Positions 1-59,969 of a DNA stretch of 64,000 nucleotides are shown here, piece by piece. The notes beneath the pieces are model-generated. The model had not been told where the DNA came from. It searched no databases and was given only the letters and a program-made list of their open reading frames with translations. How positions within the stretch are numbered: position 1 is the stretch's first letter; every line of letters starts with the position of its first letter. The translations under genes were made by a program, and so were the position numbers. Source of the stretch: Planctomycetota bacterium (GTDB lineage Bacteria > Planctomycetota > UBA8108 > SXIK01); NCBI GenBank assembly GCA_965223845.1, contig CBDCXR010000004.1, positions 3,520,001 to 3,584,000 of the forward strand, read 5' to 3'.

Positions 1-2424
1 GGTACCCCGCACATCGACATCGAGGAGATCTTTCGGCGTCAAACGATCCGCCGCCGCGTACTGAACGCGCACGTCGACGTCCTCGTCGAGCCGGCGGTCC
101 TTCACACTGCCGTGGATGAGACCGTCGTTCGCGGCACGGAGCGCGAGTGCGGCGTCCTCGGGAAAGAACCCGAGCGCCGAAGCGCGTTCCGTCTCGAGGG
201 AGAATCGATACTCCTTCGGACCGAGGTCGAAGTTGTCGGAGATCGAGTCGACGCCCTCGATCGTCCTGAGCTCTCGCTTGATCTCCTCGGCGACGCGCTG
301 CGCGGCTTGGTAGTCGTTCGACTCGACCCGCACGGCCACCGGTCGTCCGAGCGGCGGCCCGTCACGCGGCGCGAACACCTCGACCAGGTCGAAGCGATGT
401 TCGCTCTGCGCCTTCACGCTCGCATCGATTCCTGCCCGCAGCTCCCGGATGAGTTGCTCGGGATCGGCCATCAGCTCGGGAATATCGGCGAGTGTGCCCA
501 TGAAGAACGCGACGTCCGGACGGCGAAGGATCACCCCGTCGACCGTCATGCGAAAGCCGACGATCGTGTAATAGTTGACGAGAAGGCCCTTCCGGTGAAG
601 CTTGTCGAGCTCCTCCTCGATGAGACGCGCCGCATCGTCGCTCTGCTCGAGACTGTAGGACGGATCGCCCTTGAACGTCACGAACACGGCGTTGAAGTCG
701 CTCACCCACGGATCCTGCGGAATGTTGAGCACGAGCCCGACGAGAAGCACGGAGCCACCGAGTACGAGCGCGAGGAACGCGAGGCGGAAGCGAAGCACGA
801 GCCGGAGCGCGGCGAGATAGACTTTTCGCCCCCCGTCAAAGACCGCTCCCCGCATTCCACTGAAAAACCTTCCGACCGGTCCCGGTTTTCGTCCCTTCGT
901 GCGCGCGCCGAAGTCGAGATAGTGAACGGGAAGGACGGTCACGCACTGAACGACGGAGAAGATGAGCGCGAGAATGACGACCTTCGGGATGAAACTGAAA
1001 AACTTGCCGGACACACCCGTTTGAAGAAGGAGAGGCGACATCGCGGCGACCGTCGTGAGACAGGCGTTGAAGACGGGCCAAGCCACCTCGGATGCGCCCT
1101 CGAGAACCGCCTCGCGAATCGGCTTTCCCAGCTCCACGTGCCGGTAGATGTTCTCGAGCGTCACGATCGCGTCGTCGACGAGCATCCCTCCGACGAGCAC
1201 CATGCCGAAGAGCGTGAGGTTATTGATGCTCATGTCCGCGGAGGGAAAGAGGATGAACGCGCAGAGGTATGCGAACGGAACGCCGACGAGAGCGATGAGT
1301 GCGTTTCGAAGGCCCACCGCGAAAAAGAGGATCACCGCGACGAGACAGATCCCCCGCGAGAGATTGTCGAGAAGCACGGAGAACCGACTCCGCACGACAT
1401 CCGACTGATCGCCGACGATCTCCCACACGAAGCCGGCCGGCGCCTGCTCCATGAAGGCATCGATCACCCGACCGCAGTCTTCGCGGATCGAGATCGTGTC
1501 GCTGTCCTCTTCCTTCGCGATGTTGAGAACGATCGCCCGCTTCCCGTTCATGCGGGTGATTTCGCGCTCGGGCTCGAAGCCCTCCTCGACGCGAGCCACG
1601 TCGCGCACTCGGATCGGCGAGGCGCCCGGAACGAGACGCACAACGGCGCGCTCGATGTCTTCGCGATCGAGATGCTCGGCGTCGAAGCGGAGGCGGATCT
1701 CTTCTTCTCCGCCGCCTAGAGCTCCGGGCGGCGGCGCGAGACCCTCGCGCCGAATCGCTCCCGCGGAATGCGAACGACTCGAGCGCTGGAGCGCCGTGAG
1801 AACATCGAGAACCGATACGTCCGCACGTCGCGCGGCCAAGCGGTCGATGAGGACGCGATACTCGCGTTTTCGGTATCCTCCGTAAGTGACCTTCGTCACC
1901 CCCGGAACGGCGGTCAGCCGCTGCCGGAGCTCGCGTCCAACCTCGCGCAGCATCAGCTCGGTCGCAGATTCGTCCTCGCTGAAGAGAACGATCGAGAATA
2001 GCGGCCAGACTTCGCTCGTCGTCAGCTTCTGAAGGAACGGAGTCTCCGCGTCCTCGGGAAGATCCGTCGCGCGGTCGAGCGCGGCGCGGAGATCGTTGAA
2101 CGCGATCTCGAACTCGGCGTCGGTGAGCCCCTCATCGAACTTGACGTCGATGAAGCTCATCCCGGGGAGAGAATCACTGACGATCCGCTTCACTCCCGAG
2201 ATGTCTTCGATCTCATCCTCGAGCTCATTCGTGACGAGGCGCTCGACGTCTTCGGGGCTCGCACCGTCCCAGATCGTCGTGATCCAAGCCTCGGCCAGGG
2301 TCACCTCCGGCCACGGATCGACGGGGAGACGTCGAAAGACCCCGACGCCGACTCCGATGAGGAGCACGAAGAGAAGATTGATCAGCACGCGCTGATCGAG
2401 GGCGAGCGAGATGAGCGGCTTCAT
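1..2424 (-). CDS. RND efflux transporter permease subunit (AcrB/AcrD/AcrF family), 3'-truncated by the window edge
   Basis: Absent from the ORF track because no stop lies in the window. Manual translation from ATG 2424: MKPLISLALDQRVLINLLFVLLIGVGVGVFRRLPVDPWPEV...WDGASPEDVERLVTNELEDEIEDISGVKRI..., later GMLVDDAIVTLEN. ATGA overlap with the adaptor gene stop. Confidence 0.95.
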   Translation of the reverse strand, partial: MKPLISLALDQRVLINLLFVLLIGVGVGVFRRLPVDPWPEVTLAEAWITTIWDGASPEDVERLVTNELEDEIEDISGVKRIVSDSLPGMSFIDVKFDEGLTDAEFEIAFNDLRAALDRATDLPEDAETPFLQKLTTSEVWPLFSIVLFSEDESATELMLREVGRELRQRLTAVPGVTKVTYGGYRKREYRVLIDRLAARRADVSVLDVLTALQRSSRSHSAGAIRREGLAPPPGALGGGEEEIRLRFDAEHLDREDIERAVVRLVPGASPIRVRDVARVEEGFEPEREITRMNGKRAIVLNIAKEEDSDTISIREDCGRVIDAFMEQAPAGFVWEIVGDQSDVVRSRFSVLLDNLSRGICLVAVILFFAVGLRNALIALVGVPFAYLCAFILFPSADMSINNLTLFGMVLVGGMLVDDAIVTLENIYRHVELGKPIREAVLEGASEVAWPVFNACLTTVAAMSPLLLQTGVSGKFFSFIPKVVILALIFSVVQCVTVLPVHYLDFGARTKGRKPGPVGRFFSGMRGAVFDGGRKVYLAALRLVLRFRLAFLALVLGGSVLLVGLVLNIPQDPWVSDFNAVFVTFKGDPSYSLEQSDDAARLIEEELDKLHRKGLLVNYYTIVGFRMTVDGVILRRPDVAFFMGTLADIPELMADPEQLIRELRAGIDASVKAQSEHRFDLVEVFAPRDGPPLGRPVAVRVESNDYQAAQRVAEEIKRELRTIEGVDSISDNFDLGPKEYRFSLETERASALGFFPEDAALALRAANDGLIHGSVKDRRLDEDVDVRVQYAAADRLTPKDLLDVDVRGT

Positions 2425-3626
2425 GGCGAACCGGAAGATCGCACTTCCGCCCCCGGCGAGAGTTGATCGATCGGTGAGGCGATCAATCGATCGCCGGCGC
2501 TGACTCCGGCTTCTACGTGCCAAAAACCAGGCTCGTCGGCGACGGAGCGAACTTCGACGGTTCTCACCGCGGCGCGAAGCTCCTCACCGTCCGGGACGAC
2601 GACGTACACCGAGCGCTGACCGAATCGGTCGAAGACGATTTCCTTAGGAACGAGAAGGAGCGTCTTCGTACGTCCGACCCGAAACCGAGCCCGGGCGAAA
2701 AGTCCCGGAACGAGATCTCGGTTCTCGTTCGGGAGACGAACGATCACGGGAAAACGCCGCGATTCGGAGCGAGCGCCGGCGGGGAGCTCGCTGATCACGC
2801 AGCCCTCGCGATCCGAGGGGATCGAGTGGAGCGCGGGATCGACGTCGACGATCTCGACGCGAGCGGAGTCGCCGACGCGAAGCGAGAGCCTCACTTCGGC
2901 CGGAACCTCGACGGCGAGCTCGAGCGGATCGAGGACGCGCAGCTCCCCGATCGGTGCGCCGGTGCGCAGGTACTCGCCGACCTGGGCGTGATCCCGAAAC
3001 CAGACACCCGCGCGCGGAGCCGAAACGCGACAGCGCGAGAGATAGAGCTCCGCTTCGCGTTCGGCCGCGGCACTGGCCGTTCGCTCGGCCTCGATCGCGA
3101 GCAGCTCCGAGCGGAGTCGGTCCTCTTCGGCGACTCCGAGCGACCCCTCCGCGACGAGCTTCTTCACGCGGTCGAGCTCCGTGCGGAGAAACGCCGCCCG
3201 CGCTTCGAGTCCGACACCCCGCGCTCGCGCACTTTCGACGCGCGCCGAGTAGAAGACATTCTCGAGCCTAGCGATCTCTTCCCCGGCCTCGACCAACTCT
3301 CCTTCGTTCTTCCCGATCGCTTCGAGCTTGCCGTCGGTCTCCGCGGCGAGGGTGATCGTCGATGGCGACTCGAGGAATCCGGTCGACTCGTAGATGACCT
3401 CCTTCTCGGTCGCCTGAAGCTCGAGCACGCGAACCTCGATCGCGACATCCGTCTCGGGCGGCTCGATGTCTCGCATGCGATCGGAGAACTCCGCCATGAG
3501 GTCGAGTCCGATCCAGGCAAGAAAGAGAGCCACCGCGATGACGAGCACCGTCACGCTCAAATAAACGGGCTTCGGTACTCGGGGGAGGGGTTCGGCCGGA
3601 GGCGGCGCGGTGTCGGACTGGTGCAT
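2421..3626 (-). CDS. RND efflux periplasmic adaptor subunit (MFP)
   Basis: N-terminal TM, lipoyl-like half motifs (EGELVEAGEEIARL; VSAPRAG), coiled coil, LVPGLFAR; lies between TolC and RND genes. Confidence 0.93.
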   Translation of the reverse strand: MHQSDTAPPPAEPLPRVPKPVYLSVTVLVIAVALFLAWIGLDLMAEFSDRMRDIEPPETDVAIEVRVLELQATEKEVIYESTGFLESPSTITLAAETDGKLEAIGKNEGELVEAGEEIARLENVFYSARVESARARGVGLEARAAFLRTELDRVKKLVAEGSLGVAEEDRLRSELLAIEAERTASAAAEREAELYLSRCRVSAPRAGVWFRDHAQVGEYLRTGAPIGELRVLDPLELAVEVPAEVRLSLRVGDSARVEIVDVDPALHSIPSDREGCVISELPAGARSESRRFPVIVRLPNENRDLVPGLFARARFRVGRTKTLLLVPKEIVFDRFGQRSVYVVVPDGEELRAAVRTVEVRSVADEPGFWHVEAGVSAGDRLIASPIDQLSPGAEVRSSGSP

Positions 3627-50799: not shown

Positions 50800-51384
50800 T
50801 CACTCGACGGAGATGGTGCACTCTGCCATCGCGAGCGGCTCGCTCGTCGCGCCGCTCGGACTGCCGACTTTCTCGAGCGCCTTCAGCGTCTCTTCGCCGT
50901 CGACGACTTCGCCGAAAATGCTGTGCTTTCCGTCGAGCCAGTCCGTCGGAACGAACGTGAGGAAGAACTGACTTCCGTCCGTCCCGGGTCCCGCGTTCGC
51001 CATACTGAGAAGTCCCGGGCGATCGTGACGGACGCTCGGGCTGAACTCACCGTCGTACTGATATCCCGGGCCGCCCGTCCCGTTTCCGCGCGGGCACCCG
51101 CCCTGCGCCATGAAGCCCGGAATGACGCGATGGAAACTCAGTCCGTCGTAGAAGCCGAGCAGCGTGAGGTAGATCGTACTCGACACGTGCATCGGGGCGA
51201 CATCCGGCCGGAGACGGACCTTGATCGCCCCCTTGTTCGTCTCGATGTTCCAGTAGTAGGTCTTGCTCGCGTCGAATTCGACCTCGGGCGGCCGATCGAG
51301 CAGGGTCTTCCAGCCGGTCTTGCTTTTGTCGATGCCAGATTTTTCGATGAATTCGGACAGAGCCGCGACGGCGGAGTCGGTCAT
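50800..51384 (-). CDS. Cyclophilin-type peptidyl-prolyl isomerase, cytoplasmic
   Basis: [44 protein letters not shown]. Confidence 0.96.
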
Positions 51385-51409: not shown

Positions 51410-52465
51410 TTACTCGGCGAGGATGCGAGCCGACTTCACGTAGTCGAGTCGCGGGAAATCTTGCTTCAGGTAGTCGTTCCCCTGCATTTGAATCCGCCCC
51501 TGGTTCGGCCCGCGTCCGCGTGGCGCTCCTTCGCCGTAGCCGCTGTAGAGCGCGTCGACGACCTTCATTCCTTCGGCGTCGACCGTGCCGATCGGAGCGA
51601 ACCCCATCCGATCGAGATTCGAGTTGTTCCCGAAGTTGATGAAGATCTGCGTCGAACGCGAGTTGGGAAGTCCGGTCTTCGCGAACGTAACGAATCCACG
51701 CAGATTGGACTTCTTCACGGGATCATCCGGAATATTGGCTTCACGCCAGCTCGCCATCACTTTCGGGTCGCCATTGATTCCGATTTGCGCCATGAACCCG
51801 CTGATCACTCGAAAGAAGCGAGTCTCGTCATAGAAGCCACTCCGCACGAGGTTGTAGAACCGGTCGGCTCCGTTCGGAGACCAATCGCGACGCACGTCGA
51901 CGACAAAGGCGCCCTTCGAGGTGTCGAACCGGGCCTTGAAGGTGTCGGGCGCCTTCTCCTTCGCTTTCGACGGGTCGAGGAGACCCGCGCGGTTCACCTC
52001 GAGCGTCTTGGGTAGATTCGCGTCCACCGCTTCCTTGGCTTCGTCCGCGGCGCCCGCGACCTCCTCCTTCGCCGCGTCTGCCGCCCCGTCGACTGCTTCC
52101 TTGGCCGCGTCCGCGGCACCGGCGACCTCCTCCTTCGCCGCATCCGCGGCGCCGGCTACGTCTTCCTTCACAGCGTCCGGGGTCGTAGCGGCACCTTCCT
52201 TCGCGGCGTTCGACGCATCCGCGGCCGCCGCGATGCTTTCGCCCGCGGAGCTCTCCGCTGCCGTCGCGGTGTCCTTCGCCGGATCGGCTGACGTCGACGC
52301 CGTCACCGAGGCGTCTCCACTCGGCTCGGGTGGAGTCTCGCCGGTCGGCGCGACGGGACTATTCGACGGCTGGCAGCCGAACGCCAGCACGCTACCGAGG
52401 AGCGCGGTGAGTAGACACCAAGTACCGGATGGAGACGGGGTGGATCGCTTCTTCATCATGATCAT
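51410..52465 (-). CDS. Cyclophilin-type peptidyl-prolyl isomerase lipoprotein with Ala-rich repeat linker
   Basis: Lipobox LAFGC; [40 protein letters not shown]; start among ATGs 52465/52459/52456. Confidence 0.92.
52022..52175 (-). repeat. 33-bp (11-aa) coding tandem repeat, about 4.5 copies
   Basis: [49 protein letters not shown]. Confidence 0.9.
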
Positions 52466-52560
52466 CGTCCGGAAAACGCCGTCGAATATCGTGCACCGCC
52501 CCCGCCGGGGCAGCTTTCTGAAGCGCCCATTCTGTGAAGAGCCGGATCGGGATGCAAGCG

Positions 52561-55500
52561 CTAGCGCTGAACGGTCCCCGCGCGCAGCGCGGCGCGATAG
52601 AGATCCCGGTACCGGAGCGCGGAACCGCCCCACGAGTGGTCCCGCGTCATGGCGCGCGTGACGATCCCGCCCCACCGTTCGCGATTCGCGTAAGCGCGGA
52701 TGGCGCGCTCCACGGCGTCGAAGAGCGCATCCGCGCTGTAATCGCTGAACGCGAATCCGACTCCCGATCCCGCGTGGACGTCGTCGTCGTCGACGGTGTC
52801 GGCGAGCCCGCCGGTCGCTCGGACGATCGGGATCGTCCCGTAGCGTAAGCTGTACATTTGATTGAGCCCGCACGGTTCGTAGAGGGACGGCATGAGAAAG
52901 AGATCCGAGCCCCCTTCGATCAAGTGGGCGAGGCCGTTGTCGAACTTGATCAGGGCCGCCACCTGACCCGCGTAGCGAGTGGCCGCGTCGCGAAAGAAGT
53001 CCTCGTACTTGCGGAGCCCCGTGCCGAGGACGATCACCGACGGTCCGAGCTCGAGGATCCGCTCGAGCTCTTCGTGAACGAGATCGAAGCCTTTCTGGTC
53101 GACGAGCCGCGAGATGATTCCGATGAGCGGCGCATCGAGTCGCGCGGGATCGAGATCGCCGAGCTCGAACAGTCGCTTTTTCGCGAGGAGCTTACCGGCG
53201 AGATCGTCTGCGGTGAACGGCGCCGGAAGGTGCTCATCGCCACCGGGATTCCACTCGTCGATGTCGATTCCGTTCAGGATTCCACTGAAGTCGCGCGTGC
53301 GCGATCGCAGCACGCCTCCGAGTCCGGCTCCGAGATCCTCGTCTTCGCAGATCTCGCGCGCGTAGTTCTCGCTCACCGTGTTCACCTTGTCGGCGAAGCT
53401 GATTCCGACCTTCATGAAGTTGACGGAACCGTAGTGCTCGAACGGTTGACCGGGAGCGAACTGGGACCGCCCGAACCCGCACACATCGAGAATCTCGGGT
53501 GGGTAGACGCCTTGATAGCCGAGGTTGTGCAGCGTGTAGACGGTCGCCGCGCCGCCGAGGATCGGATCATCGGGATAGTGGAGCTTTACGTAGGCGGACG
53601 CTAGCGCGGTCTGGTGATCGTGACTGTGGACGACGTCGACCCGCTCGCCGAGTGCACGCAAGGCCTCGAGGCAAGCGCGCGTGAAGAACACGAAACGCTC
53701 GCCGGAATCCGGATACTCCTCGCCCGTTTCGGGATCGACGTAGACGCCGTCGCGATCGAAGTACTCGTCGTTTTCGACGAGCAAGACGCGGACGCCCGTC
53801 GCGGGACTCCGCGCCTCGGAGAGTCGGAAGGCGACCGACCGCGCGCCCACCTGCGTCCACAGCCCGTCGAGGAGCGGTTGGACGCCAAACTTGCCGCGGT
53901 CGATTGTACGAAAACCCGGTATGAGGACGGTCGTCCGCAGTCCCCACTCGCCGAGAGCCGGAGGCAGCGCAGCGACGACATCGGCGAGCCCGCCCACCTT
54001 GACGTAGGGGGCGGCCTCAGCACTCAGGAACGCGACGTGACGCGGTGCGCTAACGAGAATGTCGGCTCCGCGCGAGTGATCTCCGGCGAAGACGTCCGAG
54101 TCGAGGCGCGGAAACAGATTGTTCTTTCGCTCGAGCCGCTCGAGCAGCTCGAGGTCGGTCCCCGAAGAGCCTGCGCCGGCGCCGCGAACACCGGCGGTGA
54201 GCTGCCGGAACGCATCGAGGTGTTGCGTGACCCGACTCCGGGCGAATTCCGTCGCGGTTTCGTTTCGGAGAATGAACGCCCAGTCGCTCGATTGCGCGAG
54301 CATCAACTCGCGGCCGGCTTGGGCGAGGACTCGCCGCCTGAGGTCGTCCCCCGCGTGTCCAGCGCGCGCGAGTCGCGTCATCTCGCTGCCCGCGGCGAGC
54401 AGCTCCGGCACGATCCAGTCGTTCGTTTCGTTGAGCCAGACTTGATTGTAGCCGCCGTCGCCCCAACTCGAAGCGGACGGAGTCGTCACTTGGGCATCCG
54501 AGTACTCGGCGAGATACTCGGACGGCGTCGCCGTCTTGAGCTCGCCTTGATCGAACGCGATCTTCCGCAATAAGAAGTTGATCCAATCCGGCCCCTCGAA
54601 CCACCAGTGCCCGAAGAGCTCTGCGTCGTAGGGAGCGAGGATGATCGGCCGGCGCTCCATGTGCTCGGTGAGCCACGCGAGCTGCTCTCGTCGCCACCGA
54701 AGAAAGGTGTCGGCGTGCTCGGCCGCTTGCTGCATGGCACGCGCGCGAACGTAGACCTCTTTTTCATCGGATCCCGTCACGCGGTGATACTTGATCCCCG
54801 TCTGGATTCGCATCCCGTCGGGACAGAGATACGGACCGACCGTTTCGAGCGGGAGATCGAAGCCGATGTCTCGGTAAAACTCGCGGTAATCCGGCGCGCC
54901 GGGAAATCCCTCCTCGACGCTCCAGACCTGTTTGGCGCACTCCGGATCGCGGGCGAACGCCGCGACGCCGGATGGACAGACAATCGGGGCGTAGACACCG
55001 TAGTGCGGCCGGTCACTCCCGTGGAGGACGCCGTGGCTCTCGAGAAAGAAAAACCGGAGCCCGTGCTCAGCGAGTACGTCGTCGAGTCCGGGGTAGTACC
55101 CGCACTCCGGAAGCCAGATCCCCTCCGGCGCGCGCCCGAATCGCTCACGGTAAGCATCGACGGCGACTCGAATCTGCGCTCCGACACTCGACGGCTCGTG
55201 GCGAAGGAGCGGCAGATAGCCGTGTGTCGCGGCGGACGTGAGAATTTCGATGCGCCCCATCTCCTGGAGCCGCGCGAACGCCCCGACGAGATCACGCTGA
55301 CAGCGCACGCGATAGAACTCGTCGAGTGCGCGAAAGCGATCGACGTAGAACTGCGCGACCTCGGCGAGCTCGGGCTCGCTCCGGAGTCGCCGCGTCTCCT
55401 TCTCGGCGAGCTCGATGAGTTCTCCCAGGCGACGCTCGCACCGATCACGGAGAAGCTCGTCGTCGAGCATCGCGATGAGCGTCGGCGTCAGAGTGAACGT

Positions 55501-55683
55501 CAGTCGGAAGTCGACGCCGTCCCGGACGAGGTTTTCGAGGCTGACGAGGAGAGGGAGATAGGTTTCGACGACCGCTTCGTAGAGCCAGTACTCCTCGAGG
55601 AAGCGATCGTGCTCGGGCTCGCGAATGAACGGCAGGTGGGCGTGCAGCACCATCGTGAAATAGCCCTGCGCGTTCGAAGCCAT
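52561..55683 (-). CDS. Fused GH57 1,4-alpha-glucan branching enzyme (DUF1957) + GT5 glycogen synthase
   Basis: Residues ~1-532: HAHLP, ATHGYLP, WLPEC, PYDAELFGHWWFEG, AQSSDW. Residues ~549-1040: KVGGLADV, HSHDHQ, TLHN, GILNGID, SRLVDQKG, PSLYEPCGL, TGGLADT. One frame; AAGGAG SD. Confidence 0.93.
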   Translation of the reverse strand: MASNAQGYFTMVLHAHLPFIREPEHDRFLEEYWLYEAVVETYLPLLVSLENLVRDGVDFRLTFTLTPTLIAMLDDELLRDRCERRLGELIELAEKETRRLRSEPELAEVAQFYVDRFRALDEFYRVRCQRDLVGAFARLQEMGRIEILTSAATHGYLPLLRHEPSSVGAQIRVAVDAYRERFGRAPEGIWLPECGYYPGLDDVLAEHGLRFFFLESHGVLHGSDRPHYGVYAPIVCPSGVAAFARDPECAKQVWSVEEGFPGAPDYREFYRDIGFDLPLETVGPYLCPDGMRIQTGIKYHRVTGSDEKEVYVRARAMQQAAEHADTFLRWRREQLAWLTEHMERRPIILAPYDAELFGHWWFEGPDWINFLLRKIAFDQGELKTATPSEYLAEYSDAQVTTPSASSWGDGGYNQVWLNETNDWIVPELLAAGSEMTRLARAGHAGDDLRRRVLAQAGRELMLAQSSDWAFILRNETATEFARSRVTQHLDAFRQLTAGVRGAGAGSSGTDLELLERLERKNNLFPRLDSDVFAGDHSRGADILVSAPRHVAFLSAEAAPYVKVGGLADVVAALPPALGEWGLRTTVLIPGFRTIDRGKFGVQPLLDGLWTQVGARSVAFRLSEARSPATGVRVLLVENDEYFDRDGVYVDPETGEEYPDSGERFVFFTRACLEALRALGERVDVVHSHDHQTALASAYVKLHYPDDPILGGAATVYTLHNLGYQGVYPPEILDVCGFGRSQFAPGQPFEHYGSVNFMKVGISFADKVNTVSENYAREICEDEDLGAGLGGVLRSRTRDFSGILNGIDIDEWNPGGDEHLPAPFTADDLAGKLLAKKRLFELGDLDPARLDAPLIGIISRLVDQKGFDLVHEELERILELGPSVIVLGTGLRKYEDFFRDAATRYAGQVAALIKFDNGLAHLIEGGSDLFLMPSLYEPCGLNQMYSLRYGTIPIVRATGGLADTVDDDDVHAGSGVGFAFSDYSADALFDAVERAIRAYANRERWGGIVTRAMTRDHSWGGSALRYRDLYRAALRAGTVQR

Positions 55684-56148
55684 CCGCGTCCTCTCCTTCG
55701 TTCCTCGTCCGGGGGAACCGTCCGGCCCCGATCCGGTACTCCACCACGCTCTCGCTTCCCTCCCCCGGGCGCCCCGGCGGAGGCGCGATCCTATCCGGGC
55801 GACGGCGCGGGCGCCACGGGTCGATCGTCACCGAAGACGAGAGGACGCAAGGACGAGACGACGCAACCGCGATCCGCCTCGCTCGCTCCCTCTTCTTCGG
55901 CCGGAAACGGCTCGAGACTGAGCGAGGGATTCGTGGCGAAGGCCGCGGAGAGACGGCGACGCGTCGGACGCCTCAACTGCGTCGAGGACGGGCTCTCTCG
56001 GCCGAATGTGAGCTGCTGCTGCACCTGGCTTCCGGGCGAACTCGGGTCGTTCACCATCGCCTGAGCGCGTCGGCAACGGGAACGAGTCGACGGAATTCGG
56101 CATGCGATCCATCGACCTCGCCCCGACCACCCGACCTGCGGGTCCGGA

Positions 56149-57477
56149 CTAGCCGCGATCGATGGCGCCGAAGAACGACGGGCAGTCGCGGAGCTCGATC
56201 TCCGCGGAACGATCGTCCGTCGCGAACCGCAGCGGGACCGTGAGCTCGAACGTGCCGTCGGCGCGAACGGGAACGCGGACGCCGTGAACGACAACGTGCG
56301 CTCCCGGTGTACCGCGACCGCGGACGACGACGTTCGCCTCGACGTGCTGCGCTTCCGCCGTCGTCGACTCTCGGCGGCGCCGCCCGCCGACGGTTGAGCT
56401 CGAGAACGCGCTAGACGTCGGAAGCGAGCCCGAGCTCGGAAGATCGAGGGCGGGTGCGGTCGGGATCGTCCGCGAGCGACGTCGCTGGAGCTCCCCCGAG
56501 CTGAACTGAATGTGCTCGACTTCCGACTCCATCGACGGGATCGCCGGTGCCGAGGGTTTGGCGTTCCGATCAGAAGGCGACGCACGAAACGAGCTCGGGT
56601 CATCGATCTCCGACGCGAGCGCCGCGTCGGCGACCGGGATCCCCGGGCCGGCTAGGGGTGCCTCCGCGCGCGGGCGCGAACCGCGCGCGCGCGACGGAAG
56701 CACCGAGCCGGTGTGGTACTCGAACCGAGCGGCTTCCCTCCCCGCGGGCAGCTCCACGAGGCTCGACCATGCAACCGCGACGAAACGATCCGCGCCGCGA
56801 GCACCGAGCTCGCAGAAGATCGTCCGGCCGGGGAATCCCACCTGCACGTACTGCGAACTCTCGCTGCCGTCGACTCCGACATCGATGTAACTGCCGCCGT
56901 CCGGCTCCGACTTGCTTCCCGGACCGGCGACGTGGATCCGAAGGACGAGCGGCGCCGACGCGTCGCGGACGAACGTTCGCGCCCGCTCGAGATCGGCCGG
57001 CTCGAGCCGCCAGAACACGAACGCTTGGCGCGGATCGACCGCGACCAAACCGACGTGACTCCCGCGCGGGATCGCGCTCGCGCGAGGCGGTGGACTCGGG
57101 CACGGCGACGGCGCGCGCGCGCGTCCGACTTCCGCACGAAGTCCGGCCGGAATGCGCGGGTGGTTGCCGCTGCTCCCGGCGCTGGGAACGTCACCGTCGT
57201 CCGTCGATGCGGCGGAAACCGAGACTCGATCGGCATCGTCTGCGAGAAGCCGTGCCGTACGCTCGGTCTCTACAGCGACCGTTTTCTCTGCCTCGCTCAG
57301 AATGTCGTCGCCGGCACGAAGGAGCTCACGAAATCCCGGCAGGCGCCGAAGGGCGTTCAGAAGCTGCGCTTTCCGCATGCGCCACCGCCCCTTGATGCCG
57401 AGCGTCTTCGCCGCTTTGCGCAGCTCGGCGACGGTGCAGGCCTCGGCGTCGTGCGAGCCTTCGTGTTCGAGAGTCAT
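56149..57477 (-). CDS. DUF4912 domain protein with N-terminal Rho_N-like domain and C-terminal Ig-like domain
   Basis: TVAELRKAAKTLGIKGRWRMRKAQLLNAL; LVAVDPRQAFVFW...CELG...SSLVELP; VVRGRGTPGAHVVVHGVRVPVRADGTF. Confidence 0.82.
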   Translation of the reverse strand: MTLEHEGSHDAEACTVAELRKAAKTLGIKGRWRMRKAQLLNALRRLPGFRELLRAGDDILSEAEKTVAVETERTARLLADDADRVSVSAASTDDGDVPSAGSSGNHPRIPAGLRAEVGRARAPSPCPSPPPRASAIPRGSHVGLVAVDPRQAFVFWRLEPADLERARTFVRDASAPLVLRIHVAGPGSKSEPDGGSYIDVGVDGSESSQYVQVGFPGRTIFCELGARGADRFVAVAWSSLVELPAGREAARFEYHTGSVLPSRARGSRPRAEAPLAGPGIPVADAALASEIDDPSSFRASPSDRNAKPSAPAIPSMESEVEHIQFSSGELQRRRSRTIPTAPALDLPSSGSLPTSSAFSSSTVGGRRRRESTTAEAQHVEANVVVRGRGTPGAHVVVHGVRVPVRADGTFELTVPLRFATDDRSAEIELRDCPSFFGAIDRG

Positions 57478-57800
57478 CAGTCGGTCGCGGAGATATCGTC
57501 TTCAGTGGGCTGGAGTTCCGACGAGGTGGGGTCGATCCACCGAGAGAGTGAGCGCGGGCGACCGCCGAACGGGCGCGCGAGCCTTCCCTCGCGGTGATGT
57601 CACCCGCGAGGGCGCTCTCACGCCGGAGTGGCCGGTCTACGGGGAGCGAGACCCTGCCTGATGGCCGAGCGCGCTCCGTGAGGGCGTTCGCCTCTCTCTG
57701 CGTCGACCGGATTCGCCCTCACCTTGAGGATCGAGGCGTTCCCGGCGCCTGATCCGAGTGGTCCGGACTGCGGCGGGACGACCGGATCCGCGCGAGACGA

Positions 57801-59969
57801 TCATTTTGACGATGCCGGCGCGGGCGGTCCGTCTTTTTCGGAACTATCGCCCCCCGCATCGCTTCCGGCCGTCGCCGCGACCGCCGTGGGCGGCAGCGCG
57901 CTCGATCGCTCCTTCGCGGCGTCGGACTCGCCCGATGCCGCCGGGCGCCGAACGCCCGAGTCGAGCTCGCGCTTCGCCGCCGTCGCGGCCGTCTCGTGCA
58001 CGTCGATCACCGCGGCGCCCGCCGCGGGAACGGGCTCGATGAGTCCCGGAATCCCCTCGTTCAGGATGACGAACCGATAAATGTACACCGCGACCGGAAC
58101 CGCGAGGAGAAGGCCCCACACCCCGAAGAAGTGCTCTCCGATCGCGAGGCAGACGAGCACCATCACGGGGTGGAGATGGAGCATGTCGCCGATAATCTTC
58201 GGATTGAGGAGGCTCGTCTCGATGAAGTGGATGACGAGGATGCCGATGATCGCTTGGAGCGCAAGCCAGACCGATCCCCCGGGCTGAACGATCGCTACGA
58301 TCGCGATCGGCACACTCGAGATCACAACGCCGAGCACGGGGATGAAACTGCAGAGGAATACGATCGCGCAGAGGAAGTACTCGTTCTCCTGCCCGATCCC
58401 AAGCATCTTGATGACCAGGTACGTCAGCACGGTGTTGCAGATCGCGATCACTCCCTGCGCGAGGAACGACCGCCCGATCAAGCGACCGAAGTTGATGAGT
58501 CCAGGCGCGATCTCGTCATAGAAGTTTCGGACGCGGCTTCGCTTCAGCTTCTCGATCCCGCGTCGCAGCTTCGCCATGTCGAGCGTGATGAAGAGACTGA
58601 GCAGAAACACGAGAGCGATCTGAGGCGGAAGCGCGATGAACTGATCGAGGGTACGCTTTCCGGCTTGCTCGAGCGGTGCGACCCAAGTCGCGGCGTTCTC
58701 GCGCACGTATCCCTGGATCGACTTGTAGAGATCGCCCTGGCGCCATTCGGCCGTGAGGCGTTTGTATTCTTCGGCGCGGAAGTCGAGGTGTTGCTTGCGA
58801 ACGAGCTCCTCCTCGTCGACCGTTTCGGTGAGGTTGTCGATCTCTTGGAGGAGTCGAGAGAACGCCTCGCGCCCGTCTGCGCTCGCAAGCTCGAGGCGAC
58901 GGTAGGTCGGGTAGTCGTAGACGATCTCGCTTTCGTTCAGCTTTCGCTGCTCCTCGTAGTAGATCTCGAACTCCTCCTCTCGCTTCGGATCGGCGAGGAG
59001 CCGCTCTTCGGACTCGGCGACGAGATCAGCGCGCCATTCCTCGCGGTCGGTCGCACGTTTTGCTTCGTCGCCTCGCCAATCGTCGACGACCATCTGAAGC
59101 ATTCCGTCCCGCCGCTTCTCCGCGAAATCCGGTTGTAGGCGAAGCTCTTCGAGCGGAATCAGCTGCGGGTAGAGCTTCGAGTCCTTCTCGTAGCGTGCCT
59201 CCCAGCGGCTGATCCACTGATCCTGCTGCGCGTCGAGAATCTCTGCCGCCTTGTTGACCCGGAACCAAGCGTCGAATTCGGCATCCGAGAGGGTGCCGTC
59301 GCGAAGGCTCTCGTCGATTCTTTTCCGCGCCTCCGCGCGGGTCTTCACGTCGAACGGGTCACGGAGCGCGCGGCGGAGTCGATGGAACTTGTCGTAGTCG
59401 ACGACGCGGAGGCCCTTCTCGCGAAACTCGGTGAAGGCGACTTGATACTCGTCGCTCTCCTCATCCCCGTAGGTGCTCTCAAAGAGCATGCGACCCACGG
59501 TGTTGTTGAGGACACCGTGAAACTCCTTCTCGTAGTCGATCTTGCTCACGCGGTCGTAGAGCTCCTTCGCCTGGTCCTGAAGCTCGGGACCGACGAACTT
59601 ACCGACCTGAAGGAGACCGAGGATGATGAGCGAGAAACAGGCGAGCGTGAGAGTTCGCTCGAGCCAGACGCGCTCTTGATACGGCGAGATCAACGACTGC
59701 GTCTTCACGACGATGCTCCGCACGATGTAGCAGAGGAGAAACGTCATGAAGAGAGTGAAGAAGAAACTTCGGAGCACGTAGACGAGTCCGAAGATCAGCC
59801 CCCAGATGAGGGCTTTCTCCCACGGCAAACGCTCGAGCAGTGTCTTCCGCCGGTTCGTTTGTGATCCACTCGATTCGCCGGCGGCGGGACCGTCAACTCG
59901 CGACGGCAGGAGCGGAACGCTCGAGTCGGTCGCTTCGGAGGAGAGCTCGCGCGAAGGTCCGTCGGTCAT
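57801..59969 (-). CDS. AI-2E family transporter with large soluble insertion
   Basis: LRSFFFTLFMTFLLCYI; AQGVIAICN, SFIPVLG, LNPKIIGDMLHLHP, GEHFFGVWGLLLAVP; about 280-aa hydrophilic insert. Confidence 0.9.
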   Translation of the reverse strand: MTDGPSRELSSEATDSSVPLLPSRVDGPAAGESSGSQTNRRKTLLERLPWEKALIWGLIFGLVYVLRSFFFTLFMTFLLCYIVRSIVVKTQSLISPYQERVWLERTLTLACFSLIILGLLQVGKFVGPELQDQAKELYDRVSKIDYEKEFHGVLNNTVGRMLFESTYGDEESDEYQVAFTEFREKGLRVVDYDKFHRLRRALRDPFDVKTRAEARKRIDESLRDGTLSDAEFDAWFRVNKAAEILDAQQDQWISRWEARYEKDSKLYPQLIPLEELRLQPDFAEKRRDGMLQMVVDDWRGDEAKRATDREEWRADLVAESEERLLADPKREEEFEIYYEEQRKLNESEIVYDYPTYRRLELASADGREAFSRLLQEIDNLTETVDEEELVRKQHLDFRAEEYKRLTAEWRQGDLYKSIQGYVRENAATWVAPLEQAGKRTLDQFIALPPQIALVFLLSLFITLDMAKLRRGIEKLKRSRVRNFYDEIAPGLINFGRLIGRSFLAQGVIAICNTVLTYLVIKMLGIGQENEYFLCAIVFLCSFIPVLGVVISSVPIAIVAIVQPGGSVWLALQAIIGILVIHFIETSLLNPKIIGDMLHLHPVMVLVCLAIGEHFFGVWGLLLAVPVAVYIYRFVILNEGIPGLIEPVPAAGAAVIDVHETAATAAKRELDSGVRRPAASGESDAAKERSSALPPTAVAATAGSDAGGDSSEKDGPPAPASSK

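Follow-up and report, generated by a model that had tools for sequence, protein, structure and literature searches.

The gene at 52561..55683 probably encodes a two-activity alpha-glucan enzyme, a synthase and a GH57 transglycosylase in a single polypeptide, that works with a DUF4912 partner protein. It lies in a 64,000-nucleotide stretch of DNA (the window) analysed here together with the genome that carries it. In the mechanism we propose, the C-terminal GT5 half (GlgA) would extend alpha-1,4 chains using ADP-glucose supplied by the genome's GlgC-like enzymes. The N-terminal GH57 half, tethered to it by only 14 residues, would belong to the retaining transglycosylases of the TM1438 type, which lack the loop. 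It would cut the chains made beside it and re-attach the fragments, for the most part through alpha-1,6 linkages that create branches; some alpha-1,4 transfer and some hydrolysis would accompany this. Nascent chains might be handed over between the halves, which may give an unusual glucan. The DUF4912 protein probably attaches to the rim of the catalytic cleft in the GH57 half, and further branching would be added by a separate GH13 GlgB. The GH57-GT5 protein is a fused variant of known enzymes, and our literature search found no bench study of such a fusion. It hints at the substrate of the poorly understood loop-less GH57 enzymes, and together with its one small partner it makes a convenient system for a direct test with ADP-glucose. 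One-pot builders of branched glucan are also of practical interest for starch modification.

Gene structure and domain organization

Read on the minus strand, 52561..55683 consists of 1040 codons without a stop and starts with ATG, which bears out the single uninterrupted frame claimed, with no strand given, in a preliminary description of this DNA. The plus-strand reading of the same interval is interrupted by stops. The features of the locus are as follows:

52561..55683, minus strand: fused gene, 1040 aa, GH57 (TM1438-type) + BE_C + linker + GT5 GlgA (ORF and family profiles)
54490..55653, minus strand: GH57 catalytic domain, residues 11-398 (Pfam Glyco_hydro_57, E 1.3e-29)
55105..55107, minus strand: GH57 nucleophile Glu193 (Pfam and colinear PDB 2b5d alignment)
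54625..54627, minus strand: GH57 acid/base Asp353 (Pfam and colinear PDB 2b5d alignment)
54088..54396, minus strand: BE_C / DUF1957 helical C-domain of GH57 branching enzymes, residues 430-532, including SSDW of CSR V (Pfam, E 3.1e-26)
54040..54081, minus strand: linker DHSRGADILVSAPR, 14 residues, D535-R548 (translation)
53305..54039, minus strand: GT5 N-terminal Glyco_transf_5 domain, residues 549-793, with KVGGL (Pfam, E 5e-68)
53998..54000, minus strand: GT5 Lys562 of KVGGL
52669..53136, minus strand: GT-B C-terminal Glycos_transf_1 domain, residues 850-1005, with R859/K864 and Glu936 (Pfam, E 2.6e-12)
52876..52878, minus strand: GT5 Glu936 of EPCGL
55684..56148, no strand: G+C-rich spacer between the DUF4912 and fused genes, 465 nt, no recognised feature
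56149..57477, minus strand: DUF4912 protein gene, 442 aa, directly upstream of the fused gene (domain search)
56728..57057, minus strand: DUF4912 domain, residues 141-250

The motifs named in the preliminary description are all found in the translation, with HAHLP (residues 14-18), WLPEC (190-194), PYDAE (351-355) and SSDW (465-468) in the GH57 half and KVGGL (562-566), SRLVDQKG (858-865) and EPCGL (936-940) in the GT5 half. Its short Met-less linker, placed at about 54040-54087, agrees with the 14 residues mapped here. Compared with the adjacent but unfused GH57 and glgA genes of genome G292, the linker stands where such neighbour pairs have a stop codon, a spacer and a start Met. G+C content and GC3 are alike in both halves of the gene. 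A full-length model of the protein has a pTM of 0.69, at which the inter-domain geometry is not firm, and a linker pLDDT of about 72. The DNA is 66% G+C, and long chance ORFs are common in it, for example a 485-aa ORF opposite the fused gene. The fused ORF is not one of them, because of its family E-values and its 118 colinear homologues.

Authenticity and conservation of the fusion

Assembly error does not account for the fusion. Among the 120 best database matches, 118 are colinear full-length fusions that keep the catalytic motifs of both halves. The preliminary description had proposed checking reads across the linker; contigs from 4 sequencing runs, spanning 52400-57600 or the linker, have 0 differences and 0 gaps there, and they represent at most 2 samples of 1 study, possibly the source data of the assembly. 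There is a negligible probability that sequencing or assembly has wrongly joined two adjacent genes, through the loss of a stop codon or through an indel: GH57 and glgA genes are indeed known as unfused neighbour pairs, and the four runs may be the assembly's own source, but the 118 colinear homologues come from many sources, the run contigs are free of differences and gaps over the linker, GlgA no longer has its start Met, and just 14 residues link the halves.

The fused homologues are 45-69% identical to the window's protein. The GH57 motifs are present in nearly all of the 118 full-length proteins (PEC in 118, HxH[LIM]P in 117, DAE.[FY]GHW in 116 and [SA]SDW in 115), as are those of GT5 (K.GGL and EP.G[LI] in 118 each, R..QKG in 117). 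Between SSDW and KxGGL lie 90-161 residues, with a median of 102 (117 proteins). E193, D353, K562, R859, K864 and E936 are invariant across the 118. Both halves of the window's protein keep their catalytic residues, as the preliminary description states. One half could in principle be a degenerate passenger, either inactive or a mere glucan-binding or regulatory module, and the inactive branching domain reported for the GlgA-GlgB of Criblamydiaceae and Waddliaceae (PMC11046441) is a precedent. We consider this very improbable here, given that 115-118 of the 118 homologues, at such identities, retain the motifs for catalysis and substrate binding in both halves.

The GH57 half

The best solved match of the GH57 half is PDB 2b5d (469 bits), colinear over residues 7-535. 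All five conserved regions are present, with the catalytic Glu in CSR III and the Asp in CSR IV. The fingerprints specific to GH57 branching enzymes, given as HxHLP, the CSR III Cys, ELF(Y)GHW and the S-D of CSR V (PMC9291813), are present as HAHLP, PEC, ELFGHW and SSDW. The BE_C/DUF1957 match (PF09210) reaches 92.1 bits against a cut-off of 25. Scores for the NCBIfam equivalogs are below their cut-offs (branch_enz_Thcocales, 347 against 1000 bits; branchenz_Thermus, 300 against 920). Compared with 5wu7 and 3n8t, the GH57 half lacks the insertion after P198 and the insertion after G229; the flexible loop (17-22 residues over the cleft) and the beta5-beta6 strands are absent. These two elements are the criterion for 'true' GH57 glycogen-branching enzymes sensu Xiang et al. 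2021. By these alignments, the half is assigned to the loop-less, low-activity class of Thermotoga TM1438.

The loop-less class makes up about 92% of GH57 "branching enzymes", and two papers call its role unclear (PMC6629080; PMC9291813). On amylose, the T. maritima enzyme is reported to have 10.5 mU/mg against 480-550 for loop-bearing enzymes, and the authors of that report propose that loop-less GH57 enzymes are not glycogen-branching enzymes (PMC9291813). The loop-less enzymes are described as branching weakly, with alpha-1,4 transfer in addition (PMC9291813; PMC10346327). From its fingerprints we infer a branching reaction for the GH57 half. The GH57-synthase fusion, a parallel GT4 fusion and the frequent neighbour pairs described below provide gene-level evidence that the loop-less class works on new alpha-1,4 chains.

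The GT5 half, sugar donor and other glucan genes

The GT5 half passes TIGR02095, 'ADP-glucose type' (484.3 bits against a cut-off of 328.45, residues 549-1031), and is under the NCBIfam GlgA equivalog cut-offs (best NF001903, 455 against 616 bits); its predicted identity as GlgA holds at the subfamily level only. The genome was searched for glgC, glgB and glgE, as the preliminary description had suggested. It has two GlgC-like genes outside the fused locus (413.6 and 374.3 bits, just below the cut-off of 424.9), one of them with an LbH_GLGC domain, and a separate GH13 GlgB gene (C4:1424028-1425887, 983.7 bits), while GlgE has a marginal match only (24.6 bits). The sugar-nucleotide donor, left open before, is probably ADP-glucose, since the GT5 half passes TIGR02095 and the genome has the two GlgC-like genes. 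Genome-wide, the fusion is the sole strong GT5 (the second match is a GT4) and should therefore be the cell's glycogen synthase.

A rather improbable reading is that ordinary glycogen is made alongside a second alpha-glucan, produced by the fusion and not for storage, which might be small, dense, capsular or specialised in some other way. This reading would leave ordinary glycogen without a synthase in this genome, and no export, methylation or lipid-anchor genes adjoin the fused gene. It draws on the three Acidobacteriota genomes with the fusion, all of which keep a standalone GlgA, so that the fusion there may serve another product; an intact GH13 GlgB is present in two of the three, and the third (G301) has only GlgB fragments below the cut-off. 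Also in its favour, the GH57 product of P. mobilis is reported to be much smaller than the branched glucan of its GH13 enzyme, and the mycobacterial GH57 Rv3031 has been tied, without experiment, to other glucans (both PMC6629080).

With a classical GH13 GlgB in the genome, glycogen does not require the GH57 half for its branches. The GH57 half could then be mainly a chain editor, which trims alpha-1,4 chains by hydrolysis or disproportionates them by 4-alpha-transfer, for instance to provide the tethered synthase with primers or to set its chain length, and leaves all branches to GlgB. The loop-less TmGBE57, reported to carry out alpha-1,4-transglycosylation and to branch little relative to its hydrolysis (PMC10346327; PMC9291813), would fit such a role, and GH77 (MalQ) is absent from our search of the genome, which is 91.7% complete, so that a disproportionating activity would fill a gap. 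This remains the less likely reading, as published loop-less enzymes are reported still to introduce about 6% branches (PMC9291813) and the GH57 half keeps all fingerprints that separate branching enzymes from GH57 amylases and 4-alpha-glucanotransferases. We favour an enzyme that both extends and branches its chains.

The DUF4912 neighbour

In the 442-aa protein encoded upstream, a Rho_N-like N-terminus is followed by the DUF4912 domain, a low-complexity stretch and a small C-terminal beta domain. The 465-nt spacer before the fused gene contains Arg-rich junk ORFs only and no frame with coding GC3. Over 52000-58000, a promoter and terminator consensus scan gave 0 promoter-like and 2 terminator-like sequences (3.2 expected), both on the plus strand, and Rfam gave 0 matches at E <= 0.1. 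The other neighbours of the fused gene are cyclophilins and an AI-2E-family transporter.

Of 87 related loci, 70 have a DUF4912 gene immediately upstream of the GH57 gene and on its strand, and natural DUF4912-GH57 fusions were confirmed in eight representatives. A predicted complex between the GH57 half and the DUF4912 domain scores 0.86 (best control 0.00). Of 157 solved complexes, 116 attain this mark, as do 2 of 215 mismatched pairs. Contact agreement between runs is at least 59%, and the partner has a pLDDT of at least 70. The most conserved DUF4912 positions (D148, P149, F153, F155, S239 and P244) coincide with predicted contacts; on the GH57 side, the contacts predicted include P198, H217 and the stretch 410-418. 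According to this model, the DUF4912 protein would probably bind to the rim of the catalytic cleft in the GH57 half. Searches for relatives of the domain returned nothing but DUF4912 clusters in the ESM Atlas, no sequence match for its profile among solved structures (best E 0.67), and, by fold, generic FN3-like beta-sandwiches only (Z about 9, Foldseek E about 1e-4).

A bolder and more tentative suggestion is that DUF4912 may be the missing subunit of loop-less GH57 enzymes. It would dock at the rim where the well-studied enzymes carry the loop and the beta5-beta6 strands, and the pair would act on chains during their synthesis by a dedicated GT5 or GT4. If so, the loop-less enzymes would be reported as nearly inactive in vitro only because the GH57 protein was assayed alone, on amylose, and the DUF4912 protein and the GH57-GT5 fusion would form a self-contained two-protein factory for branched glucan.

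Distribution and origin

The GH57-GT5 architecture is carried by at least 118 distinct 90%-identity clusters and recurs in a few soil and water bacteria. Automatic annotation names its members, for example, 'glycogen synthase GlgA' or '1,4-alpha-glucan branching protein domain-containing protein'. The fusion is present in 2 of 301 sampled genomes of the window's phylum, in 1 of 301 of a second phylum and in 6 of 151 genomes of one order of the latter. As to the novelty raised in the preliminary description, the architecture is known from other bacteria as well, though few of the genomes sampled carry it. Since the distribution is patchy, tethering is dispensable.

Other lineages have GH57 followed by glgA as separate adjacent genes (L055, L058 and G292); the G292/L017 locus, with a TGA and a glgA Met of its own, is a neighbour pair and not a fusion. 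A synthase as the universal neighbour of GH57 was considered and rejected: among 103 downstream same-strand ORFs, in a scan that left out the GT5 neighbours found earlier, GT5 occurs at L049 only. These ORFs are mostly unrelated genes or further glucan genes, and most standalone GH57 loci have no adjoining synthase gene. FastTree and IQ-TREE trees of each half separate the window's clade from the Acidobacteriota clade. AU tests nevertheless do not reject a single clade: on the GH57 tree, p is 0.32 when the two clades are joined and 0.125 when all 15 truly fused rows are, and on the GT5 tree p is 0.23.

Comparison with known systems

Each half has a solved standalone counterpart. T. maritima TM1438 (AmyC / TmGBE57, PDB 2b5d) likewise has the five conserved regions without the beta5-beta6 insertion or the flexible loop, and its Tyr is kept in the fused protein as Y228. 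TM1438 is a standalone protein of 528 aa, whereas the window's protein has GlgA on the C-terminus of the equivalent module. The GlgA structures of A. tumefaciens (1rzu) and E. coli (2qzs/3d1j) align end to end with residues 549-1034 (261-282 bits), with KxGGL, HxHD, R/K and EPCGL in register; unlike them, the GT5 half has no start Met of its own and is fused behind a GH57 enzyme.

Among other fusions, the GH57 (non-branching type)-GlgA protein P0244 likewise has GH57 N-terminal to a GT5 GlgA, but its GH57 part lacks BE_C and gives no alignment of more than 400 residues with that of the window's protein; it is an independent kind of fusion. The pairing of GH57 with GT4 mentioned in the preliminary description exists, also in fused form. 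In the GH57-GT4 fusions of Bacillota (Thermincola ferriacetica, L090; Alicyclobacillaceae, L056 and L087), the same GH57 and BE_C modules are N-terminal to a GT-B glucosyltransferase and DUF4912 lies upstream, as in the window. They differ in the GT4-type transferase, in their length of about 940-975 aa and in the NTP-transferase(-PGM) and GH15 genes that follow. The GlgA-GH13 fusion of some Chlamydiae, also mentioned there, is in print as the GlgA-GlgB of Criblamydiaceae and Waddliaceae, with an inactive branching domain (PMC11046441). It resembles the window's protein in joining synthase and branching enzyme in one polypeptide. Its branching part is GH13, reportedly inactive, and is said to have arisen in a decaying pathway, whereas the partner in the window's protein is GH57, N-terminal and conserved in its catalytic motifs.

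Structure of the fused gene

The fused gene occupies positions 52561-55683 of the minus strand, where translation gives an ATG-initiated frame of 1040 codons without interruption; read on the plus strand, the same interval contains stops and is not open. The preliminary description had claimed a single open frame of this length and a short linker lacking methionine. Both are borne out, the frame on the minus strand and the linker as a stretch of 14 residues, and each motif that it named is found in the minus-strand translation.

Domains (Pfam) and motifs (translation) of the fused protein, by residue
11-398, minus strand, Glyco_hydro_57 domain
14-18, minus strand, HAHLP
190-194, minus strand, WLPEC, with Glu193
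351-355, minus strand, PYDAE, with Asp353
430-532, minus strand, BE_C/DUF1957 domain
465-468, minus strand, SSDW
535-548 (nt 54040-54081), minus strand, linker DHSRGADILVSAPR
549-793, minus strand, Glyco_transf_5 domain
562-566, minus strand, KVGGL
850-1005, minus strand, Glycos_transf_1 domain
858-865, minus strand, SRLVDQKG
936-940, minus strand, EPCGL

Residues 549-1031 match the NCBIfam model TIGR02095 (glycogen/starch synthase, ADP-glucose type), scoring 484 bits where the cut-off is 328, and residues 7-545 match the GH57 branching-enzyme models with scores below their equivalog cut-offs. A full-length AlphaFold2 model built on a 118-row alignment has a mean pLDDT of 92.6, a pTM of 0.69 and a linker pLDDT of about 72; each half is modelled with high confidence, and their mutual placement is left unfixed.

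A search of 5.8 billion proteins, with 8000 candidates scored, returned 1708 matches to the fused protein at E <= 0.001. Of the 120 top-ranked matches, 118 span both halves with a length of 950 residues or more, and the remaining two fall short of this length and are probably partial sequences. Identity between the 118 full-length homologues and the window's protein is 45-69%; 115 to 118 of them retain the catalytic motifs of both halves, and E193, D353, K562, R859, K864 and E936 are invariant; with this conservation in view, we give very little credence to the reading that one half is a dead passenger. As proposed in the preliminary description, the linker was also checked against read data: Logan contigs from four runs (one study, at most two samples, and possibly the assembly's own source) cover 52400-57600 or the linker with 0 differences and 0 gaps. 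That the fusion is an artefact is, in our judgement, extremely unlikely.

Distribution and origin of the fusion

Among the 301 Planctomycetota genomes sampled, a full-length fused match occurs only in the window's own genome (G000) and in G128. Most of the others encode separate GH57 (~530 aa) and GlgA (~490 aa) proteins, often a few kb apart on the same contig. From the window's family just one further genome was sampled (G216, 96% complete), and it has no match to either half at E <= 1e-20. One genome, G292, carries an adjacent but unfused GH57-glgA pair (L017, on contig C46; locus positions 2920-3192, minus strand), which looked fused because the search alignment ran through its TGA and was rejected as a fusion. 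Its GH57 gene stops ('...DYRVWA*') at the place matching the linker, one in-frame TGA and ~30 codons part it from glgA, and GlgA keeps its own start Met. The window's fusion therefore takes the place of a stop codon, spacer and start codon.

A second and equally patchy set of fusions is found in Acidobacteriota (Acidobacteriaceae L039, Bryobacteraceae L076 and Bryobacterales L104), in 1 of 301 genomes of the phylum and 6 of 151 genomes of one order (E <= 1e-200). The fusion-bearing G301, G302 and G303 of this phylum also retain a standalone GlgA; GH13 GlgB is intact in G302 and G303 and represented in G301 only by fragments below the cut-off. At 50% clustering, over 1.84 billion representatives, GH57(BE_C)-GT5 fusions fall into a few clusters (P0044, P0097, P0126 and P0127). 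The two main fused clades stand apart in unconstrained trees of the GH57 and GT5 halves, and a single fused clade is not rejected by AU tests (p 0.32, 0.125 and 0.23).

A loop-less GH57

The GH57 half is colinear with Thermotoga maritima TM1438 (PDB 2b5d, 469 bits) and aligns far more weakly to the enzymes of Pyrococcus horikoshii (5wu7), Thermococcus kodakarensis (3n8t) and Thermus thermophilus (3p0b). Unlike these three, it has no insertion after P198, immediately behind the catalytic Glu, nor after G229. In the terms of Xiang et al. (PMC9291813), the two insertions are the beta5-beta6 strands and the flexible loop, and both are absent from 2296 of their 2497 GH57 branching-enzyme homologues. 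The same paper reports weak amylose branching by loop-less enzymes (10.5 mU/mg for T. maritima versus 480-550 for loop-bearing ones) and states that their cellular substrate 'remains to be established', a growing glucan chain being possible according to its authors. Its data set probably includes GH57 fusions, because homologue lengths span 418 to 1184 residues; a word search of its text returned neither 'fusion' nor 'fused'. The loop-less TmGBE57 is also reported to catalyse alpha-1,4-transglycosylation (PMC10346327), and in Petrotoga mobilis and Mycobacterium tuberculosis, where GH13 and GH57 are both present, the role of GH57 is said to remain 'unclear' (PMC6629080). The transglycosylation would suit a GH57 half that is mostly a chain editor, acting by alpha-1,4 transfer or hydrolysis; we think this unlikely, and prefer branching as its main reaction.

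DUF4912 and the gene neighbourhood

Genes flanking the fused gene
50800-51384, minus strand, cyclophilin-type peptidyl-prolyl isomerase, directly downstream
51410-52873, minus strand, second cyclophilin-type peptidyl-prolyl isomerase, directly downstream
56149-57477, minus strand, DUF4912 protein of 442 aa with a Rho_N-like N-terminus, directly upstream (family search)

The true start of the second cyclophilin gene is probably later, because its ORF overlaps the 3' end of the fused gene; in L081 (Gemmataceae), too, a cyclophilin gene lies a few kb downstream of GH57. The spacer between the DUF4912 and fused genes (55684-56148, 70% G+C) showed no Rfam match, promoter/terminator consensus or coding-like frame. 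It measures 465 nt, whereas the two genes lie within about 20 nt of each other in the fused loci L016, L039 and L104.

We compared 91 related loci (11 from the phylum search and the best 80 of the species-genome scan), of which 87 were usable and four had no suitable upstream ORF; in four other loci the upstream part was the GH57 ORF's own N-terminal extension. DUF4912 is present in the ORF immediately upstream of the GH57 match in 70 of the 87, the remaining 17 being unrelated genes or ORFs with no family match. The two are also naturally fused: all eight N-terminally extended representatives tested (P0125, P0140, P0151, P0158, P0190, P0191, P0198 and P0200) carry all three domains. A synthase gene near GH57 is not universal among the 91 loci: GT5 is fused in four, adjoins or lies near GH57 on the same strand in five and is on the opposite strand in two, and GT4 is fused in three. 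GH57 with BE_C is fused to a GT4-type transferase in Thermincola ferriacetica, in Alicyclobacillaceae and in five representatives tested.

Other arrangements were seen among these loci. In the Bacillota L056, L087 and L090, all with DUF4912 upstream, the gene after the GH57-GT4 fusion encodes an NTP-transferase, which in L056 and L090 is fused to a part resembling a phosphoglucomutase; L087 and L090 then have a GH15 gene as well. The loop-less GH57 gene of L024, L026, L051, L077 and L088 is followed closely by one or two additional GH57 paralogues, and those of L077 and L088 include a 4-alpha-glucanotransferase-type GH57 with AmyA-gluTrfs_C. A conserved ORF of ~476-479 aa, with no Pfam match, directly follows GH57 in the Omnitrophota L035, L051 and L062, and in L035 sits between GH57 and glgA.

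The DUF4912 domain (residues 125-270, 51-row alignment) is predicted to fold as a beta-sandwich plus a single helix (pLDDT 85.5); its likeness to FN3 domains is generic (Z about 9, Foldseek E about 1e-4), and a sequence search found no solved structure for the family. Three complex predictions with the GH57 half (1-545) scored 0.85-0.87 (median 0.86; best control 0.00), a mark attained by 116 of 157 solved complexes versus 2 of 215 mismatched pairs, with at least 59% contact agreement between runs and a partner pLDDT of at least 70. The prediction supports binding of DUF4912 to the GH57 half. Confident GH57 contacts comprise residues 158-159, 162, 198, 217, 221-222, 403-405, 410-414, 417-418, 422, 425-426 and 429. 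The beta5-beta6 insertion is missing at residue 198, 217-222 lie just ahead of Tyr228 and of the point where the loop is absent, and 403-429 includes the conserved Trp407 and Trp416. On the DUF4912 side, the predicted contacts fall on the positions that vary least in the family (D148 in 45, P149 in 49 and P244 in 50 of 51 rows; aromatic 153 and 155; N/S 239). From the model we infer that DUF4912 may act in trans as a cover over the cleft rim, in the place of the lid that loop-bearing enzymes carry themselves.

A Rho_N-like start is seen in seven of these DUF4912 proteins, the window's included. Those of L043, L060, L077 and L079 have a small C-terminal beta domain weakly matching Glucodextran_B (PF09136, E 1e-5 to 1e-6), and the C-terminal stretch of the window's DUF4912 protein (56149-56320) looks similar. 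A second DUF4912 protein in the genome (34-37 bits; 344-aa ORF, G000:C4:1387349-1387663, L107:8026-9060, minus strand) has no adjoining GH57 gene; it is flanked by genes for a PKD-domain protein of 1001 aa and an O-methyltransferase on the other strand.

Glucan metabolism and proposed role

The window's genome (7.93 Mb, 4 contigs, 91.7% complete) has the fused gene as its sole strong GT5 match; a second, weak one proved to be an ordinary GT4. It encodes two GlgC-like proteins (413.6 and 374.3 bits, cut-off 424.9), one with an LbH_GLGC domain, a classical GH13 GlgB (983.7 bits), another GH13/CBM48 protein, two GT35 phosphorylase-like proteins and a second GH57 of the DUF3536 type. No GH77 (MalQ) was found in this 91.7% complete genome and no clear GlgE, GlgE_dom_N_S matching marginally (24.6 bits) in a 1582-aa ORF at C4:929311-929532. 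The preliminary description, which suggested looking for glgC, glgB and glgE, had left the sugar donor open; this gene content, with a GT5 of the ADP-glucose type, largely answers that question, and ADP-glucose is the donor expected from sequence. It follows too that the GH57 half is not the sole possible branching activity.

On balance we lean towards a glycogen synthase working beside GH13 GlgB, in which the GT5 half would use ADP-glucose to lengthen alpha-1,4 chains, the tethered GH57 half would cut and re-attach them, mainly as alpha-1,6 branches, and DUF4912 would act as a bound helper of the GH57 half. That the product is instead a separate, specialised glucan seems to us quite improbable, and would fit the Acidobacteriota better than the window's genome.

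Comparison with known fusions

Full-text literature, with subscription journals and CAZy/InterPro tables outside its scope, yielded no paper describing or assaying a GH57-GT5 fusion, and the fused proteins stand in public databases under automatic names. Passages on fusions in a 2024 Chem Rev review (PMC11046441) describe TreS-Mak, MalQ-GlgB and GlgA-GlgB(GH13) and do not mention GH57-GT5; the words 'fusion' and 'fused' are absent from a 2026 branching-enzyme review. By itself the fusion is only mildly surprising; in combination with the GT4 and DUF4912 fusions it gives direct experimental access to a question that concerns most GH57 'branching enzymes'.
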